From: a plasmid
Strand: one strand, 5' to 3'
Assembly (NCBI RefSeq): GCF_054482595.1
Contig: NZ_JBTHVH010000001.1
Length of the DNA stretch: 64,000 bases
Under the pieces are notes generated by a model that made no database searches, was not told the DNA's origin, and saw nothing but the letters and a program-made list of their open reading frames with translations. Each line of letters begins with the position of its first letter. Positions within the stretch are counted from its first letter, which is position 1. The position numbers and the translations under genes are program-made. Of the stretch, positions 55,417 through 62,579 are shown piece after piece.

Positions 55417-56846
55417 TCCTCCTCATACGAAATATTAAAGGTGGAGTTTTCTGTATCCAGATAAACGAAATCGTAAAAGCCGTTGGACTCATTCCACTCG
55501 ACAAATTCCAGATAAAAGTCGCGGAAATAACCCAGCGTTTCGATAAATGCCCAAACGTCTTTTTTCTTGATCAGGATGTACTTGCCGACACCGTTCGGAT
55601 CAAAGAAATTTGAGTCGCGCCCAAATTTTGTTTCCAGTGCCGACTTCAACTCATCAGTCACGTTCTCAATAGTCAGGCTTGCCGATATCCGCCCGGTGAT
55701 GGTTATCTTAAATGGTAGTTTTCTGACCTCTTTATAAGAGAATTTCTTGTTCAGTTCATTCGGTACCTTCTTAAAGGCAGTCAGGATCATTTCTTCAAGC
55801 TCTGACTGGCTTTTATTTGGATGCCATCCTGAAATAAATATCTTATTGATATTCTGAACATTATAAGCACCATCTAATTTCTCTTGCTGGCCTTCGCCCC
55901 ATGCCTTTACCCAGGACAGCCCCGGGATGTTACGAACCAGAAAATACGTATAGTCCCCGCCCCATACGACCTGATCATCATAGGCAAGGTAATATTGTGC
56001 ACGGTTACGTGTGATCTCCGTTGTTTCAGCATCGGTACCTGCGGTTATAGGTGTCGTTGTCTTAACTGAAATCAAATTAGCTAAATTAGCCGCAGAATCG
56101 ACAGGCGTCAGGTTTTGGCCAGCAACCAGGGTTATATCGCCGTTGGTGCACCATACCTTAAGCGTAATTGTCGAACCTTCTGGCGGTATTTGCCCAATTA
56201 GCCCATCGCCGAATCGAACCCCCAACTGCTCGGATGGTTTATAAAACTCAACGTAGACCTGGCTTTTACTACCGGCTAACCGGAACATAGTGCTGGAAGA
56301 CCACTGCGTGGTCTTACCATCGGTCGTCACGAATACTTCCAGCTTATAGCAGACAGCAGTAAGAGCCTTTGATAACACGACTTCCAGAAATTCTTTGGCT
56401 GCCGTAACGGTATATGTCACCTCCTGGATTTCCAACTGTGCCACTTCTACCGTACCGGTGCCGTCAACCAACCTGCATACATCCATAGTCATGTAAGGGT
56501 ACTGGTCGTCAGATATTAAAGGCATGTTTTTGGGGATTACCGCTGGGGCATCTTCACTTGTGGCGGTGATCTCAATCATCCCCGATGACGGTGTTGGCTT
56601 GGTACCAACGTAACTATTCGTTTCTGCCGCTGCCAGGATAGAGGAACGCCGCGTCGCGGTCGATATAAAGCCTTCAGCCAGCGCCGCATCGGCATACTGA
56701 AAGCACCTGTAGACAATCTGGGTAATAAACAATGTCAGCATCGAGACAAATTGAGAGCCGACAAACTTCGACCAGAATGAATCTTTCTCGACAAGCTCTT
56801 CAAACTCTGCACGAATACTGTCTTTAGTCGGTGTTGTTTTACTCAT
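55413..56846 (-). CDS. baseplate J-like protein
   Basis: 477-aa ORF; size and position typical of baseplate J family. Confidence 0.5.
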   Translation of the reverse strand: MSKTTPTKDSIRAEFEELVEKDSFWSKFVGSQFVSMLTLFITQIVYRCFQYADAALAEGFISTATRRSSILAAAETNSYVGTKPTPSSGMIEITATSEDAPAVIPKNMPLISDDQYPYMTMDVCRLVDGTGTVEVAQLEIQEVTYTVTAAKEFLEVVLSKALTAVCYKLEVFVTTDGKTTQWSSSTMFRLAGSKSQVYVEFYKPSEQLGVRFGDGLIGQIPPEGSTITLKVWCTNGDITLVAGQNLTPVDSAANLANLISVKTTTPITAGTDAETTEITRNRAQYYLAYDDQVVWGGDYTYFLVRNIPGLSWVKAWGEGQQEKLDGAYNVQNINKIFISGWHPNKSQSELEEMILTAFKKVPNELNKKFSYKEVRKLPFKITITGRISASLTIENVTDELKSALETKFGRDSNFFDPNGVGKYILIKKKDVWAFIETLGYFRDFYLEFVEWNESNGFYDFVYLDTENSTFNISYEEE

Positions 56847-57202
56847 AGCACCACGTCCTGTGTGATAGTTATATCCCTGATACGAATGGATATTTTCAAC
56901 TTATCAAAAGCATCTCCCTCGGCTACTGACAAGCCAGAAATCGGTATGTCAGGTAAATCTACCGTCAGTTTTTGCAACAGCATTGCCTCAACCGCAATTT
57001 GAACATGCGACAAGTTGGTCGGTTCGTGTTTAAACTGCGGTAAAACATTGCCCCATGACGGATCTCCGTATACCTCACCCTGATAAGTGTTTAGCCACTC
57101 ATATAAACGAGCGCCCCAGGCCTCCTCCTGGGACTCATACGTTTTTACGCCGGATAACTCCAGCGTCAGCAAAGGATCAATTTCGTTATTGTTGGCCATC
57201 AA
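56843..57202 (-). CDS. baseplate wedge (gp25/W-like) protein
   Basis: 119-aa ORF between sit and baseplate J-like gene. Confidence 0.4.
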   Translation of the reverse strand: MMANNNEIDPLLTLELSGVKTYESQEEAWGARLYEWLNTYQGEVYGDPSWGNVLPQFKHEPTNLSHVQIAVEAMLLQKLTVDLPDIPISGLSVAEGDAFDKLKISIRIRDITITQDVVL

Positions 57203-60200
57203 TCAACTCTCGCGTAGTCATTCATCAACGGATCATCAATTGACAGTGGTACCGTGCGCATAACGCCCGGCTGAGGCGTGCTGACCTTTACGACAGTTCC
57301 CTGGCCTTTCGCCGAGTCTTTGGTGTGCTCTTCAATCCTGGCAAGCAATGAGGTCATCTGCGCAAACAGCCGCTTCGTTTCACCATCAAGTGAAACGGTA
57401 TTATCAGCCAACTGCATTGTCGGCTTGGCACCGGAACCGCCAAGGTCACTAATAACCTGCCCGTCTATCTGCATACGACCGGTTGGTTGCTGCAAATCGT
57501 TGGCGGCAGTCGTCACCTTGGACGTGGAGGCTGGTTCAGGCGCATTATTTTTCCGCATCCCCGGCGAGTTGCGGAGTTTATCGAATAGTCCATCAATCCC
57601 CATTTGTGCGCCGAGTTGGTCAAAGTAACTTGAGTTGCTGGCCACCGGACGCGCCTCTTCAACTGGCATCGGAATATCAACATACACATTGCCAGCTGCT
57701 GTTGCGGTCCCCTTCCCTCGTGCACGTTCTTCGAGCGTTCCCTGAACGACTTCCCGACGCATACCCCGGCCATTCATGAATTTGTTGACCAGATCGTTAA
57801 CGCCAACAGCATTGCCGATTTTGTCTACCAGACCGCCTTTCTCAAACGGGCTATCACCAGGGGTAAACGCCAGGCCAGTAGACTGATCGATAACAGCGTT
57901 ATCAGGCAGTGGTCCCCTCACTCCATATTGCGCCCCACCCTGTGCTCCTGCTCCAGGTGTATAGATTTCACCACCTAAATAGCGAGCACGATGAGTATTG
58001 ACCTTGATCGCGTACTCACGGTTTTCTTTCGATAAGTCACCTGTGCCTTTTTTCCACTTATTGATAGTGCCAAACCCAGCGTTATATGCAGTGATGGCCT
58101 CGTTTAAGTCTCCATTGGCTTGCTTCAGATACTTGCTCATGAGAAGAGCCGCAGCTTCTGCCGATTTCACAGGATCAAACGATTCACCTTCAGCTAAGCC
58201 AGTCTCTTCACGAGCAATCCCCGTGAACTGAAACATTCCCAGAGCACCGGTTTGGGATTTTGCATACGGATTACCACCAGATTCAGTTGCAGCAATCGCG
58301 TAAAGAGTGCCTTCTGGAAGACCATATTTATTCTCTAGTTCAGCAAAATACGGAGCCAACTTATCGAGATTTGCCTTACCTTCAGATCCAAGACTTCCGA
58401 CTTTTACATCCAAGCGGCCATTGTTGTAGGTATCCGCAGCTTTCTGAATGTCACTCCTGGTGCCAGTGGTATTAAGCGACGATGATGACGAGCTATTTTG
58501 ACCAATAGCTTTATCAATTTTCTGCAACGCGCTATTGCCCGTTTCTACGGCATTTGCATTGATAATCTGATTCGCAGTTTCTTTAACTGTTTTATTGCTA
58601 TCTTTCGCCGTGTCCAGTGCCGCATTTATCACGCGGGTAACAATATTAGTCTGTTTGGCATCGGATTCAGTTTTAGAATCAGATGTCTCCTGGTGGCTAT
58701 TAACCGGAGCTTTTAACTCTGGAGTGATTTCTTTGGCATTAGCCTCGCTATTAACCGGAGCTTTTAACTGTGGAGCGATTTCTTTCGCATTAGCCTCGCT
58801 ATTAACCGGAGCTTTTAACTCTGGAGTGATTTCTTTCGCATTAGCCTCGCCGATCGGATTGGGTATTTTTGATACAATCATTGCCGCAGGGGTATTTTTA
58901 ACGGCATCAACCGCTGCATCTAATGCTTTACCAGGTAAATTTTTAACCCCATCCCAAATATTACCAGCCGCCTCTTTAATGTGTTTCCCTGGGTTCTTAA
59001 TGAAATCAATTGCACTATCAATTGCATCACTGAAAACCTGTTTCAGGTTATCAACAGTAAAGAAGTCTTTGATGGCATCCAGCTTTTCAAGCAGCTTATT
59101 AGATGTATCGCTAAACCATGCTGAAACAGCATCACCAATCTTTGCTGTGTAATCTTCGAACTTGGTAGAAATGGTGTCGCCAAGGTTAGAAATATATGTT
59201 TCTAAGTTGGTAATCCCACTATCAATGGCCTGGGCAATACTTTCCGTCGAAAATGATTGCAACATATTGCCGATATCCTCAAATCCAAGTGATTTGAGAA
59301 CCTCACCAATGGCGCTGCTAATACCAGATACCAGTCCCCCCATATCAAGAACATTGGCTAACGTATAAGCGGCTTTTTGCTGGAATGATGGATCTTGTCC
59401 TGATTTAAGCCCAAACGCTCGACGTTGCGCTTCTGTATCATTCCAACCGGTTACCGCATCATAAATACCTCCAGCCACTGTGCCGACTAAGGGAATTGCG
59501 CGTAACGCCCCTTTACCAACTGCCTTTAATCCAAGTTTACCTGCTGCCCGGGCAGCCAAATCTCCACCTTCATGGGCGATAGTCTTCTTGCCACCACCGC
59601 GTAGCATTCCTACAAGTTTCTTTGCCCCCAGAGCGCCAAAAGCGAGTGCTCCAGCTTTTTTCAGCATGCCACGCCCCATTAACAACGACGCGACGCCACC
59701 GGCCCCCTTCCCTAACAGGCTAAATAGTTTGGACAGCAAGCCGCCCTTCTTTTTCCCGGTGTTTTTGGCTATCTGATCAAGGGCGCTGAGAATCTTGTCA
59801 TTGCCCTCTTTAATTTCGCTGGTCTGCTCCTGAAGTTCCTGAACTGTCCGTTTTTGGGTGTTAACCTGAACGACATCGGCACTATTTTGCGATTTACGCC
59901 TAAAAAAACCTTTTCTACGGCTGTTATCGTCATTGCCACGAATCACATCGGCAATAGACTTTCTGGCACCATTAAGCGATCCACCAACTTCTTTTGATAT
60001 CCCGCCAAGCTCCTTCCCTGCTGCCCACAATGGACCAGCAACGGCATAACCTAACGCATCAACGGCACGAGTCTCTGAAGGGTTACCTATGCCTTCAGCT
60101 ACTTTTGACAGTTTTTTTAATAAACCTGATTCAGCATTTAGACGCTCATCATCCTCTTTACGCCTGGCCTTTTCAGCACGTTCAGCACGGGCATCTTCCG

Positions 60201-60990
60201 CTGCGGCCTTACTCCCTGACTTTCCAATAAAACGACCACGCGCATCGCGTTGGTTTTGGCTTTTTTGCGCACCGCCTTTTTGATCGAACATTTCGCGAGC
60301 GTGTTCGGCTGCTTCGGTCCGTTGTGCCTTTATATCCTCTGGTATAGCCTTCCTGCGTCGTTTTTTACCCTTTGGTGTAGTTGATTTGGCCTGCTGTTCC
60401 TGTTGAGCAATGCCCTCCTGAACTACACGAGAAACGTCCCCTAAATTAAGCCGTTTCATTGCGTCAACAATAGGGTCTACTGATGGCGCATTGGCCACAA
60501 AGTCTGGCCGGGAATTTTCGATTGTTCGATTTAATGCCGACACACTGCGAGATACTGGGTCAACCGTTGCAACGCGTTCCCCTTTCAAATCACGAGCGAG
60601 TTTAACCGTTTCTAACCGCTGTGCTTTAACATCCTCTGTTATTGCCTCTCTTCGTCTATTTGGGGGATTGTGCGCTGTTGGTGCAGCCTGCTGTGCACGG
60701 TTAGTGACTTTGTCCTCCCGTATACGAGAAACGTCCCCTAAATTAAGCCGTTTTATTGCGTCAACAATAGGGTCCACTGATGGCGCATTGGTCACAAAGT
60801 CAGGACGTGAATTTTCGATTGTGCGATTTAATGCCGACACACTGCGAGAGACAGGATCAACAGTTGCAACTCGTTCCCCTTTCAAATCTTCAACAGCTTC
60901 CCGAATACCTGCAAGCTCTTCCAGCTCTTTCGCGCTGGCGGTTTCAACTGTCCTTATAACATCGTCAATATTGGCGTTTTTTCTTTCCAT
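57199..60990 (-). CDS. sit: injection transglycosylase / tape-measure-like protein with SLT domain
   Basis: 1263 aa; lytic transglycosylase motif YAIAATESGGNPYAKSQTGALGMFQFT; internal tandem repeats. Confidence 0.7.
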   Translation of the reverse strand: MERKNANIDDVIRTVETASAKELEELAGIREAVEDLKGERVATVDPVSRSVSALNRTIENSRPDFVTNAPSVDPIVDAIKRLNLGDVSRIREDKVTNRAQQAAPTAHNPPNRRREAITEDVKAQRLETVKLARDLKGERVATVDPVSRSVSALNRTIENSRPDFVANAPSVDPIVDAMKRLNLGDVSRVVQEGIAQQEQQAKSTTPKGKKRRRKAIPEDIKAQRTEAAEHAREMFDQKGGAQKSQNQRDARGRFIGKSGSKAAAEDARAERAEKARRKEDDERLNAESGLLKKLSKVAEGIGNPSETRAVDALGYAVAGPLWAAGKELGGISKEVGGSLNGARKSIADVIRGNDDNSRRKGFFRRKSQNSADVVQVNTQKRTVQELQEQTSEIKEGNDKILSALDQIAKNTGKKKGGLLSKLFSLLGKGAGGVASLLMGRGMLKKAGALAFGALGAKKLVGMLRGGGKKTIAHEGGDLAARAAGKLGLKAVGKGALRAIPLVGTVAGGIYDAVTGWNDTEAQRRAFGLKSGQDPSFQQKAAYTLANVLDMGGLVSGISSAIGEVLKSLGFEDIGNMLQSFSTESIAQAIDSGITNLETYISNLGDTISTKFEDYTAKIGDAVSAWFSDTSNKLLEKLDAIKDFFTVDNLKQVFSDAIDSAIDFIKNPGKHIKEAAGNIWDGVKNLPGKALDAAVDAVKNTPAAMIVSKIPNPIGEANAKEITPELKAPVNSEANAKEIAPQLKAPVNSEANAKEITPELKAPVNSHQETSDSKTESDAKQTNIVTRVINAALDTAKDSNKTVKETANQIINANAVETGNSALQKIDKAIGQNSSSSSSLNTTGTRSDIQKAADTYNNGRLDVKVGSLGSEGKANLDKLAPYFAELENKYGLPEGTLYAIAATESGGNPYAKSQTGALGMFQFTGIAREETGLAEGESFDPVKSAEAAALLMSKYLKQANGDLNEAITAYNAGFGTINKWKKGTGDLSKENREYAIKVNTHRARYLGGEIYTPGAGAQGGAQYGVRGPLPDNAVIDQSTGLAFTPGDSPFEKGGLVDKIGNAVGVNDLVNKFMNGRGMRREVVQGTLEERARGKGTATAAGNVYVDIPMPVEEARPVASNSSYFDQLGAQMGIDGLFDKLRNSPGMRKNNAPEPASTSKVTTAANDLQQPTGRMQIDGQVISDLGGSGAKPTMQLADNTVSLDGETKRLFAQMTSLLARIEEHTKDSAKGQGTVVKVSTPQPGVMRTVPLSIDDPLMNDYARVD

Positions 60991-61071
60991 GATCTTATCG
61001 CCTACCGTTTCGGTTTAAGTTTTTCTTCCAGTTTCTCCAACAGGAAAAACGCATAGGATTCAGTAAGCCTT

Positions 61072-61953
61072 TCAGCGTCCTGAATCGGTATACCCCCATA
61101 CAAAACCAGGTTGGACACTAAGGTCTGATAGCTTTTCAATCCCCACCTGTGGAATGAAGTCGGTAGCCCGAAAGGGCACCCACAGACGGGTATATGCACC
61201 CTCTGTGGACTCCTTTTTATCCTGATTTGGGCATTTATGCGGCGGGAGACGAAGACGCATTTCACCTTTATCGATGTAGCACGGTAAACCATGTTCGAGC
61301 TTTTCATGAGCCAGTCGGATGTGTGCCGCCAGCTTCATAAATTCAGTATCAATGGCCATCCGTTTAATCGTTTCATAACGACGCTCAGCCTGATCTTCAC
61401 GAGTACCGCTAACATCGTTATAAAGCTCACACTGATAAGCGAATTCCCAAAAACGCAAATCAACGATCGCTTCTTTGAATTCCGCGTCGTCTTCAGCTGG
61501 CAATGCTGCACGGCGCATCTCCAGCATTTCCATTGCCCAACCATCAAGCGGCACGATACGCCATTGATAAGGTACTCCCTCTACAGACACCTCAATATCG
61601 TCAATGAAAGGTTCCACTTCCAGGACCTGGATATCTTCAGCCAGAGCATTCATATCGCAATCGTAATAATGCTCTTTACCGCAATGTTTACAGGTGTAGG
61701 TGAATGTCTCGACCGGTGTTTCACGGGAGCCGGTAAATATCCACCATAACGCGGTAATCCGGTCCTGCGCCGTCCATGTCAGGGGATCATGTTTCGCGGG
61801 TTCAGCCAGCAAGGCTTTTAAATACGCCGTTGTCTGTTGTTCTTGTTCCTCCGGTGTTATCGAGTTGAAACGCATCGCATCAGCAATATTTGGCTGACGG
61901 AACTGGATCAATTCAGTTGGCCGCGATGGTAGCGGGAAAAGGGGTAAAAGCAT
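61072..61953 (-). CDS. hypothetical tail-module protein (293 aa), full-length copy
   Basis: ORF downstream of tail-tube-like gene. Confidence 0.5.
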   Translation of the reverse strand: MLLPLFPLPSRPTELIQFRQPNIADAMRFNSITPEEQEQQTTAYLKALLAEPAKHDPLTWTAQDRITALWWIFTGSRETPVETFTYTCKHCGKEHYYDCDMNALAEDIQVLEVEPFIDDIEVSVEGVPYQWRIVPLDGWAMEMLEMRRAALPAEDDAEFKEAIVDLRFWEFAYQCELYNDVSGTREDQAERRYETIKRMAIDTEFMKLAAHIRLAHEKLEHGLPCYIDKGEMRLRLPPHKCPNQDKKESTEGAYTRLWVPFRATDFIPQVGIEKLSDLSVQPGFVWGYTDSGR

Positions 61954-61967
61954 CCTTGCTCCTTAAT

Positions 61968-62579
61968 TCAAAGAGAAAAACTAAAGCCCAGAAGGGAAGC
62001 CAAAGAACTTGAGGATTGGTTAAACGTGCTGTGCAATGCGAAGGTCATTGGGAATGACTTAAATTCCGTAACCTGATCCCGCGCATAGGTGACATCGCCG
62101 GTAGTGACCGGGAATACCGTCATCTCATTTTCCAGTTTGGTTAAGCCGGAAGACAGCAACCGATAAATACGCACATTGAGCAAATATTTAGACGGTATAT
62201 TCCCGGTACCGTCCGGATTGATCACCCGACTTTTTGCCGTCTTAAACCAGTCTAAAACGAGGCCATCAACGGTATCCCTGACCATCATTGTTATCTGCCC
62301 AGGCGAACGCTCCGTTGGTTGAAGGATATTCCCTCCGCCGATTTTAATCGTTTCATATTCGATGCTGTAATCGTGGTAGGTAATGTCTTTGGCAAAGAAG
62401 TCTGCCCCCTCCAGTCCATCAACTTCGACAGAGAACTGCCATCCTTGCGCGAACAGCATTTTGTTCATGATGATTGACGTCAGCTTACCAACTTCCCGCT
62501 CACCAACGCCGGAGCCAAATAATGTCGTCGTTAATGCCGAAGATACATAAGACTTTACTGAAGCAACATTAAGCCCCAT
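61968..62579 (-). CDS. tail tube-like protein (203 aa), copy 1
   Basis: ORF with GAGGGGG SD. Confidence 0.5.
   Translation of the reverse strand: MGLNVASVKSYVSSALTTTLFGSGVGEREVGKLTSIIMNKMLFAQGWQFSVEVDGLEGADFFAKDITYHDYSIEYETIKIGGGNILQPTERSPGQITMMVRDTVDGLVLDWFKTAKSRVINPDGTGNIPSKYLLNVRIYRLLSSGLTKLENEMTVFPVTTGDVTYARDQVTEFKSFPMTFALHSTFNQSSSSLASLLGFSFSL

Follow-up and report, generated by a model that had tools for sequence, protein, structure and literature searches.

A 99-codon tandem unit of variable copy number near the 5' end of the P1-like tape measure gene sit

The gene sit, which encodes the tail tape measure protein of the P1-like element analysed here (a 64,000-nt stretch of plasmid DNA, hereafter the window), holds two head-to-tail, contiguous and in-frame units of 297 nt, or 99 codons each, which showed up in a register scan with a 297-nt offset. 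Among relatives the same unit is present once, twice or three times. We consider it probable (roughly 60%) that the unit, a 55-aa core followed by a 44-aa basic and proline-interrupted tail, is a copy-variable cassette at the N-terminal end of Sit that is changed by unequal recombination and lengthens the ruler.

The gene and its repeats

The 3792-nt ORF that carries the repeat is sit, the orthologue of P1 Sit, as judged from identity, gene position and the SLT domain (Table 1). By megablast, 19 Punavirus records match it at 80% coverage or more, with 96-98% identity to P1, P7, RCS47, JL22 and other Punavirus genomes; its best family match is phrog_2533, and the SLT domain has weak PDB matches to MltC. 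The order tub-pmgB-sit-pmgA-bplA is that of P1 and, as expected of a tape measure gene, sit has the tail tube and chaperone genes on one side and those of the baseplate on the other. Of its neighbours, pmgB is a proposed tape-measure chaperone gene (PMC9024508), and the product of pmgA is a baseplate wedge protein, assigned as BW1 (PMC12810830). Window Sit thus resembles P1 and P7 Sit in gene, position, SLT domain and sequence (96-98% protein identity with indels excluded), but those proteins contain one 99-aa unit and one 17-aa repeat where the 1263-aa protein of the window contains two and three, and window Sit is without an insertion of 10 aa present in the SLT region of P1 Sit.

Table 1. 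Coordinates of sit, its neighbours and its repeats in the window
Feature	Position	Strand	Remarks
tub	61968..62579	minus	ORF upstream of pmgB
pmgB	61072..61953	minus	directly upstream of sit; PmgB-like, phrog_1854, E = 2e-154; position as in P1
sit	57199..60990	minus	3792-nt ORF, 1263 aa; structural injection transglycosylase, tail tape measure protein
repeat unit 1	60592..60888	minus	aa 35-133; register scan and alignment; absent from P1, P7 and SJ46, a gap in P1 and P7 in the protein alignment
core c1 of unit 1	60724..60888	minus	55 aa, DLKGERV...NLGDVSR
tail t1 of unit 1	60592..60723	minus	44 aa, IREDKVTNRAQQAAPTAHNPPNRRREAITEDVKAQRLETVKLAR; marker of multi-unit alleles
repeat unit 2	60295..60591	minus	aa 134-232; aligns with the single unit of P1, P7 and SJ46
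core c2 of unit 2	60427..60591	minus	165 nt
tail t2 of unit 2	60295..60426	minus	VVQEGIAQQEQQAKSTTPKGKKRRRKAIPEDIKAQRTEAAEHAR
second repeat class in sit	58696..58850	minus	51 nt x 3, in frame, 17 aa, EANAKEITPELKAPVNS; one copy in P1 and P7
SLT lytic transglycosylase domain of Sit	58021..58350	minus	aa 881-990; Pfam PF01464, E = 1.8e-27
pmgA	56843..57202	minus	directly downstream of sit, overlapping its stop codon; phrog_1896; position as in P1

An earlier, sequence-only reading of this DNA had placed a tandem duplication towards the 5' end of sit, and both the register scan and the alignment bear it out: gene nucleotides 103-399 recur as nucleotides 400-696, the units being sharply delimited, at D35 and at D134, so that the gene holds exactly two consecutive units, as had been proposed. 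The period, put at ~295 bp (~98 aa), is exactly 297 nt or 99 codons, and the location, given as 60290-60900, needs only a small correction to 60295..60888, with the coding strand being the minus strand. Identity between the units starts at GATTTGAAAGG (D-L-K-G) and stops after ...GCTCG(T/C), the A-R codons, and the peptide quoted as duplicated in that reading (ERVATVDPVSRSVSALNRTIENSRPDFV...NAPSVDPIVDA.KRLNLGDVSR) does occur twice in the Sit translation. A second class of repeat in the same gene had also been noted, and is real: the three 51-nt copies listed in Table 1.

The two units are far from uniform in their likeness. In register they match at 232/297 nt (78%) and 71/99 aa (72%), and the high identity attributed to them applies only to the first 55% of each. 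This core, the first 165 nt, matches between units at 153 nt (93%) and at 53 of 55 aa, leaving 12 nt and 2 aa that differ, and reads DLKGERVATVDPVSRSVSALNRTIENSRPDFVxNAPSVDPIVDAxKRLNLGDVSR, where x differs between units. The tail, the last 132 nt, matches at only 79 nt (60%) and 18 of 44 aa, with 53 nt and 26 aa differing; t1 and t2 have in common only the motif RRRxAIxEDxKAQRxE...AR, and both are basic (net charge +4 and +5). An in-register match of 165 nt at 93% cannot have arisen by chance. A repeat search recovered 212 nt of the duplication at 84% identity and a spacing of 297, while Tandem Repeats Finder at a minimum score of 30 did not report the 297-nt repeat, because the diverged tails hold its score under the threshold. 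No third or degenerate copy of the 99-aa unit was found elsewhere in Sit, where charged segments are only weakly similar to it, and the unit itself is without internal repetition.

Copy number, recombination and age of the unit

Comparison with P1 sit, which the earlier reading had proposed as a check, shows that at the very place where the window carries two units P1 has just one, as do P7 and SJ46. Nor is the unit duplicated in all relatives, as an ancient and fixed duplication would be; most relatives have one. Single-unit proteins are those of P1 (1140 aa), P7 (1130 aa), SJ46 (1137 aa) and the alleles L010, L011, L017-L020 and L022; two units are present in the window, phi456, L006 and L013-L016; and three are present in L005, L007 (intact, 1340 aa) and L008 (intact, 1338 aa), with sampled Sit lengths ranging from 1124 to 1340 aa. 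The record NZ_CP041960 is an example with three units in a protein of 1340 aa. The tail of unit 2 differs from that of the P1 unit at 7 of 132 nt (7-12 of 132 for the single-unit tails of P1, P7 and SJ46).

Since megablast gives no cross-match between t1 and t2, t1 could be used as a marker of multi-unit alleles in larger collections. It is present in 137 of 479 sit-bearing PLSDB plasmid records (29%), eight of which have two t1 copies. Among complete E. coli genomes, t2 was found in 447 of 5426, and t1 in 197 of the 447 that bear sit (44%), nine of them with two copies. These counts correspond to allele shares of ~56-71% for one unit, 27-42% for two and ~2% for three, which are not population frequencies, as the PLSDB and E. 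coli collections overlap and are skewed towards clinical and antimicrobial-resistance isolates. One record, CP099053.1, has two units and is 100% identical to window sit over the first 800 nt. The two-unit form is therefore a widespread allele, neither private to this element nor recent. A two-unit N-terminus with a t1 tail is common to the window, phi456 and many IncY/IncHI1B-typed P1-like phage-plasmids (CP099053.1 and NZ_CP029117.1 among them), although what follows it differs: in phi456 and L006 the middle region is of SJ46 type, the 17-aa repeat is single and diverged, and the protein has 1231 aa, the length of the NZ_CP029117-type protein as well, whereas in window sit the middle region is P1-type and the 17-aa repeat is present three times.

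Outside this group the unit was not encountered. An HMM of the unit, built from six variants, gave three strong matches among 1.84 billion representative proteins, all of them P1-like Sit or fragments of it; when unit 1 was compared with 50,697 phage records by tblastn, only Punavirus came up, plus a chance match to an Agrobacterium sheath (E = 0.8); and a word-indexed protein search returned mainly partial Sit fragments. Across these 1.84 billion proteins and 50,697 phage records the 99-aa unit is without homologues beyond P1-like Sit and is lineage-specific.

The composition of individual alleles points to recurrent unequal homologous recombination, the evidence being chimeric middle units, converted cores and one unusual single-unit allele. 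In all the three-unit alleles the middle unit is chimeric, a c2-type core followed by a t1 tail, which matches the product expected if core 1 of one two-unit allele had crossed over with core 2 of another. The crossover point lies past core nucleotide 134 in L005 and between core nucleotides 103 and 113 in L007 and L008; since these points differ, expansion occurred at least twice, independently. A c2-type patch at core nucleotides 32-38 in unit 1 of both L005 and L014 indicates, from its sequence, gene conversion, and unit 1 of L016 joins a t1 tail to a core of the single-unit type. The single unit of L011 has a c1-type core and a t2 tail, making it a candidate deletion product, the reciprocal expected from unequal crossing-over. 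These sequence patterns show copy number moving among one, two and three through unequal homologous recombination, for which the near-identical 165-nt cores are the sites, with cores also swapped by gene conversion. The longest perfect in-register matches between unit 1 and unit 2 are 30, 26 and 20 nt, which appear short yet usable as recombination substrates; no Chi sites were found in the repeat region.

Under this mechanism, deletion from core to core would always drop t1 and retain t2, which may be why single-unit alleles always have t2. Consistent with that expectation, t1 was never found without another unit after it, and a synthetic junction joining t1 directly to post-repeat sequence had no match, either as DNA against PLSDB or as protein against a set of 5.8 billion clusters. 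The multi-unit N-terminus is joined to P1-type or SJ46-type middle regions and to P1-type or window-type t2 tails, and sit is therefore mosaic.

Both copies of the unit are maintained by purifying selection, which in the core is very strong. Between c1 and c2, dN is 0.017 and dS 0.28 (dN/dS ~0.06), a dS in the same range as that of allelic differences to the P1 core (0.15-0.25). The tails have a dS of ~1.06, saturated at synonymous sites, with dN/dS of ~0.16 in their conserved motif and of ~1 in their variable half. Because t1 is not near-identical to t2, the pair is not a recent duplication of a P1-type unit; and because t1 has diverged from t2 to synonymous saturation, we infer either that the architecture of two units far predates today's allelic diversity, with only the cores homogenised since, or that unit 1 was imported from a diverged relative. 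No donor lineage for t1 was found among the 1.84 billion representative proteins and 50,697 phage records. Core haplotypes from 21 alleles were compared with a view to duplication versus deletion: sampled single-unit cores, L011 excepted, share one haplotype that is c1-like in its 5' part and c2-like in its 3' part; this would fit one old deletion or crossover and an ancestral single unit equally well.

Predicted effect on the tail and competing explanations

In the literature Sit is the accepted or putative ruler of the P1 tail (PMC9024508, PMC12810830). LC-MS/MS has shown it to be present in P1 virions, and its N-terminal ~750 aa, two-thirds of its length, are predicted to be helical (PMC9024508); a cryo-EM study of P1 names Sit the TMP, and the protein is unresolved there save for low-resolution density at the centre of the baseplate (PMC12810830). 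The P1 tail comprises 53 sheath and tube rings with a rise of 40 Å, the sheath being 2100 Å long and the tail 2450 Å overall (PMC10304247). Spreading the 2100 Å sheath over the 1140 aa of P1 Sit gives 1.84 Å per residue, above the 1.5 Å of an alpha-helix, and because this exceeds the reach of a full alpha-helix of 1140 aa, little of Sit is likely to lie off the ruler.

On the ruler model, each unit would add ~149-182 Å (~15-18 nm), or ~3.7-4.6 rings. The Sit of this element is 123 aa longer than that of P1, extra 17-aa repeats included, and would accordingly specify ~5 extra rings (~58 versus 53), while three-unit alleles, ~200 aa longer, would specify ~8 extra rings, for a predicted ~61-62. 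A single-sequence AF2 model of residues 1-352 is almost wholly helix, each unit forming three helices parted by two proline-rich breaks, at a low-confidence mean pLDDT of 55; on such a model a unit folded back on itself into a compact bundle of helices, adding under 15 nm, is also conceivable. Genes with one, two and three units are intact, both copies are under purifying selection, and phi456, whose sequence carries two units, forms plaques (PMC10967188). The extra unit therefore belongs to a working protein, and a longer tail is probably the most likely effect of extra units.

The ruler reading has to be weighed against what is known of this end of the protein in other phages. The extreme N-terminus of other tape measure proteins is linked to contacts with chaperone and terminator more than to a pure ruler role, which counts against a ruler function for the cassette. 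The main rival, which we regard as unlikely, is that the cassette is a head-proximal docking or adaptor module (contacting, for example, PmgB, gp24 as the tail terminator or, via the basic RRR/KKRRRK motif, the DNA end) and that the tail stays at 53 rings, additional copies being tolerated or altering the efficiency of assembly or ejection. The cassette does begin at residue 35 of a protein of ~1200 aa, and the dN/dS of ~0.06 in its core suggests a specific binding surface over generic helical filler; this core constraint and the basic tails (+4 and +5) are compatible with docking, as are the restriction of the unit to P1-like Sit among 1.84 billion representative proteins and the prediction, at pLDDT 55, of three helices per unit with proline-rich breaks. 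Against docking, some 1.84 Å per residue are needed across the whole of P1 Sit, leaving scant room for segments outside the ruler, and multi-copy binding sites have no obvious benefit, even though alleles with two units are very common and those with three are intact. Less credible still is an effectively neutral polymorphism, in which the repeats recombine into one-, two- and three-unit forms with no adaptive meaning even if tail length shifts slightly. The pairing of the multi-unit N-terminus with varied downstream segments is as would be expected under free recombination, and every copy-number class is present in intact genes; but the cores are constrained in both copies and the t1 motif has a dN/dS of ~0.16 despite saturated dS, so the extra unit is not decaying. 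A frequency of 29-44% over many hosts and countries likewise does not indicate a deleterious variant.

Two further explanations fare poorly. That the repeated DNA serves something besides Sit, as an antisense gene, a regulatory DNA repeat or an RNA, is highly improbable. A stop-free plus-strand frame of 175 aa (60491..61018) overlaps unit 1, and extends to 274 aa in three-unit L005; however, it has a TTG start and meets stops in the tail of unit 2, it is only 84-99 aa in P1, P7 and SJ46, and the wobble position it has in common with sit deprives its substitution pattern of independent weight. We rejected this ORF as a gene and take it to be a by-product of the sit frame. No promoter-like sites were found in 60100..61200, a terminator scan of the region was also empty, and Rfam gave no match in the repeat region. 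That the repeat is an assembly artefact, or private to this element, we consider close to impossible. Repeats in general can be mis-assembled, and sit is frameshift-ridden in 673R5, 813R1 and L005; but the two-unit structure is present in well over 100 independent complete plasmids and genomes, including CP099053.1, and the units differ at 65 positions, so that an assembler cannot collapse or expand them.

Relation to other tape measures, and implications

Variation in tape-measure length through internal repeats is a known phenomenon, of which sit is a new example with a unit of a different kind. In-frame deletions and duplications in lambda gpH change tail length (Katsura 1987, as cited in PMC9022992 and PMC3271669). 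The case of sit is like that of gpH in being an in-frame internal duplication in a tail-length gene, from which a proportional change in length would be expected, but the gpH variants are engineered or selected mutants of a siphophage, whereas that in sit is a natural and frequent polymorphism in a phage with a contractile tail, its effect on length being predicted. In some tape measure genes, evolution has proceeded through units of 11 aa being duplicated and lost (Belcaid et al. 2011, PMC3271669). There, as in sit, the gain and loss of tandem units can be traced among close relatives; those units are short, whereas the sit unit is 99 aa, a composite of core and tail, and present in only one to three copies. 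Sit hydrophobicity has no 11-aa periodicity (p = 0.23-0.32), and a weak hydrophobic signal at 3.67 residues is not robust. In the searchable literature on P1 and phage-plasmids we found no prior description of the 99-aa repeat in sit, nor tail lengths for the two-unit phages phi456, 673R5 and 813R1, the phi456 paper (PMC10967188) stating none.

For generalised transduction P1 is the standard phage, and resistance genes in Enterobacteriaceae are often carried on P1-like phage-plasmids, for whose annotation and short-read assembly the repeat is a practical caveat. Taking the ruler reading a step further, one can imagine the cassette as a 'ruler module' by which recombination switches among tail-length morphs of ~53, 57 and 61 rings, kept at intermediate frequency by selection, for instance by matching the thickness of the host envelope, capsule or O-antigen; we think it improbable that all of this holds. 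Were it true, the tape measure would ancestrally have had two units, and the textbook P1 tail would be its short form, derived by deletion. In any case, alleles with one to three 99-aa blocks and one to three 17-aa blocks are a ready allelic series for the Sit ruler model in a contractile-tail phage, with the 53 rings of P1, known from cryo-EM, as its baseline, and this series would bear on whether tail length varies within one phage species and whether that affects infection.

Divergence across the 99-codon repeat

Allelic divergence between this sit, the tail tape measure gene, and that of P1 shifts abruptly across the 99-codon repeat: the 102 nt lying 5' of the repeat have a dS of 0.26 with zero amino-acid changes, versus a dS of only 0.05 in the 600 nt lying 3' of it. 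As read from the sequence, this step is consistent with a recombination boundary. The stop-free frame antisense to the first repeat unit was rejected as a gene, being opened by a TTG start, interrupted within the tail of the second unit, and short in P1, P7 and SJ46, which carry one unit each; in L005, a three-unit allele, the frame lengthens to 274 aa.

Positions of features in or overlapping sit
Feature	Window	Strand	Remark
sit 5' of the repeat	60889..60990		102 nt
sit 3' of the repeat	59695..60294		600 nt
Antisense stop-free frame	60491..61018	plus	175 aa; overlaps unit 1
51-nt x 3 tandem repeat	58696..58850	minus	in frame inside sit; 17 aa, EANAKEITPELKAPVNS
Region of the SLT-domain difference in P1	about 58150..58290		alignment columns 917-960

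Broken and fused copies

Frameshifts break sit in several deposited P1-like sequences (phages vB_EcoM-673R5 and vB_EcoM-813R1, and relatives L005 and L021), whose annotation splits the gene into several small 'hypothetical proteins'; the frameshifts probably reflect sequencing or assembly mistakes within or close to the repeats. The 813R1 gene appears to hold three units. Separately, a database protein of 1009 aa (P0022) joins Sit residues ~117 to 330, comprising the end of the first unit's tail, the whole second unit and the region following the repeat, to ~790 aa of unrelated C-terminal sequence, and its source is probably a rearranged P1-like element.

Length variation and mosaic structure

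Among the sit-bearing relatives compared (L001-L022), Sit measures 1124, 1130, 1137, 1140, 1142, 1199, 1231, 1246, 1263, 1338 or 1340 aa, a wide spread given that these P1-like elements are otherwise very similar. Extra copies of the 17-aa repeat, whose copies are 94-98% identical to one another, contribute 34 aa to the window's Sit in comparison with that of P7; P1, P7 and the three-unit allele L008 have one copy, and SJ46-type and phi456-type alleles a single, diverged one. Within the lytic transglycosylase (SLT) domain, it is P1 that has a 10-aa insertion (TLTRSPNGKL) and also a diverged patch, both absent from the window, P7 and phi456. As a gene sit is mosaic: P1-type and SJ46-type middle regions are freely paired with one-, two- or three-unit N-termini.
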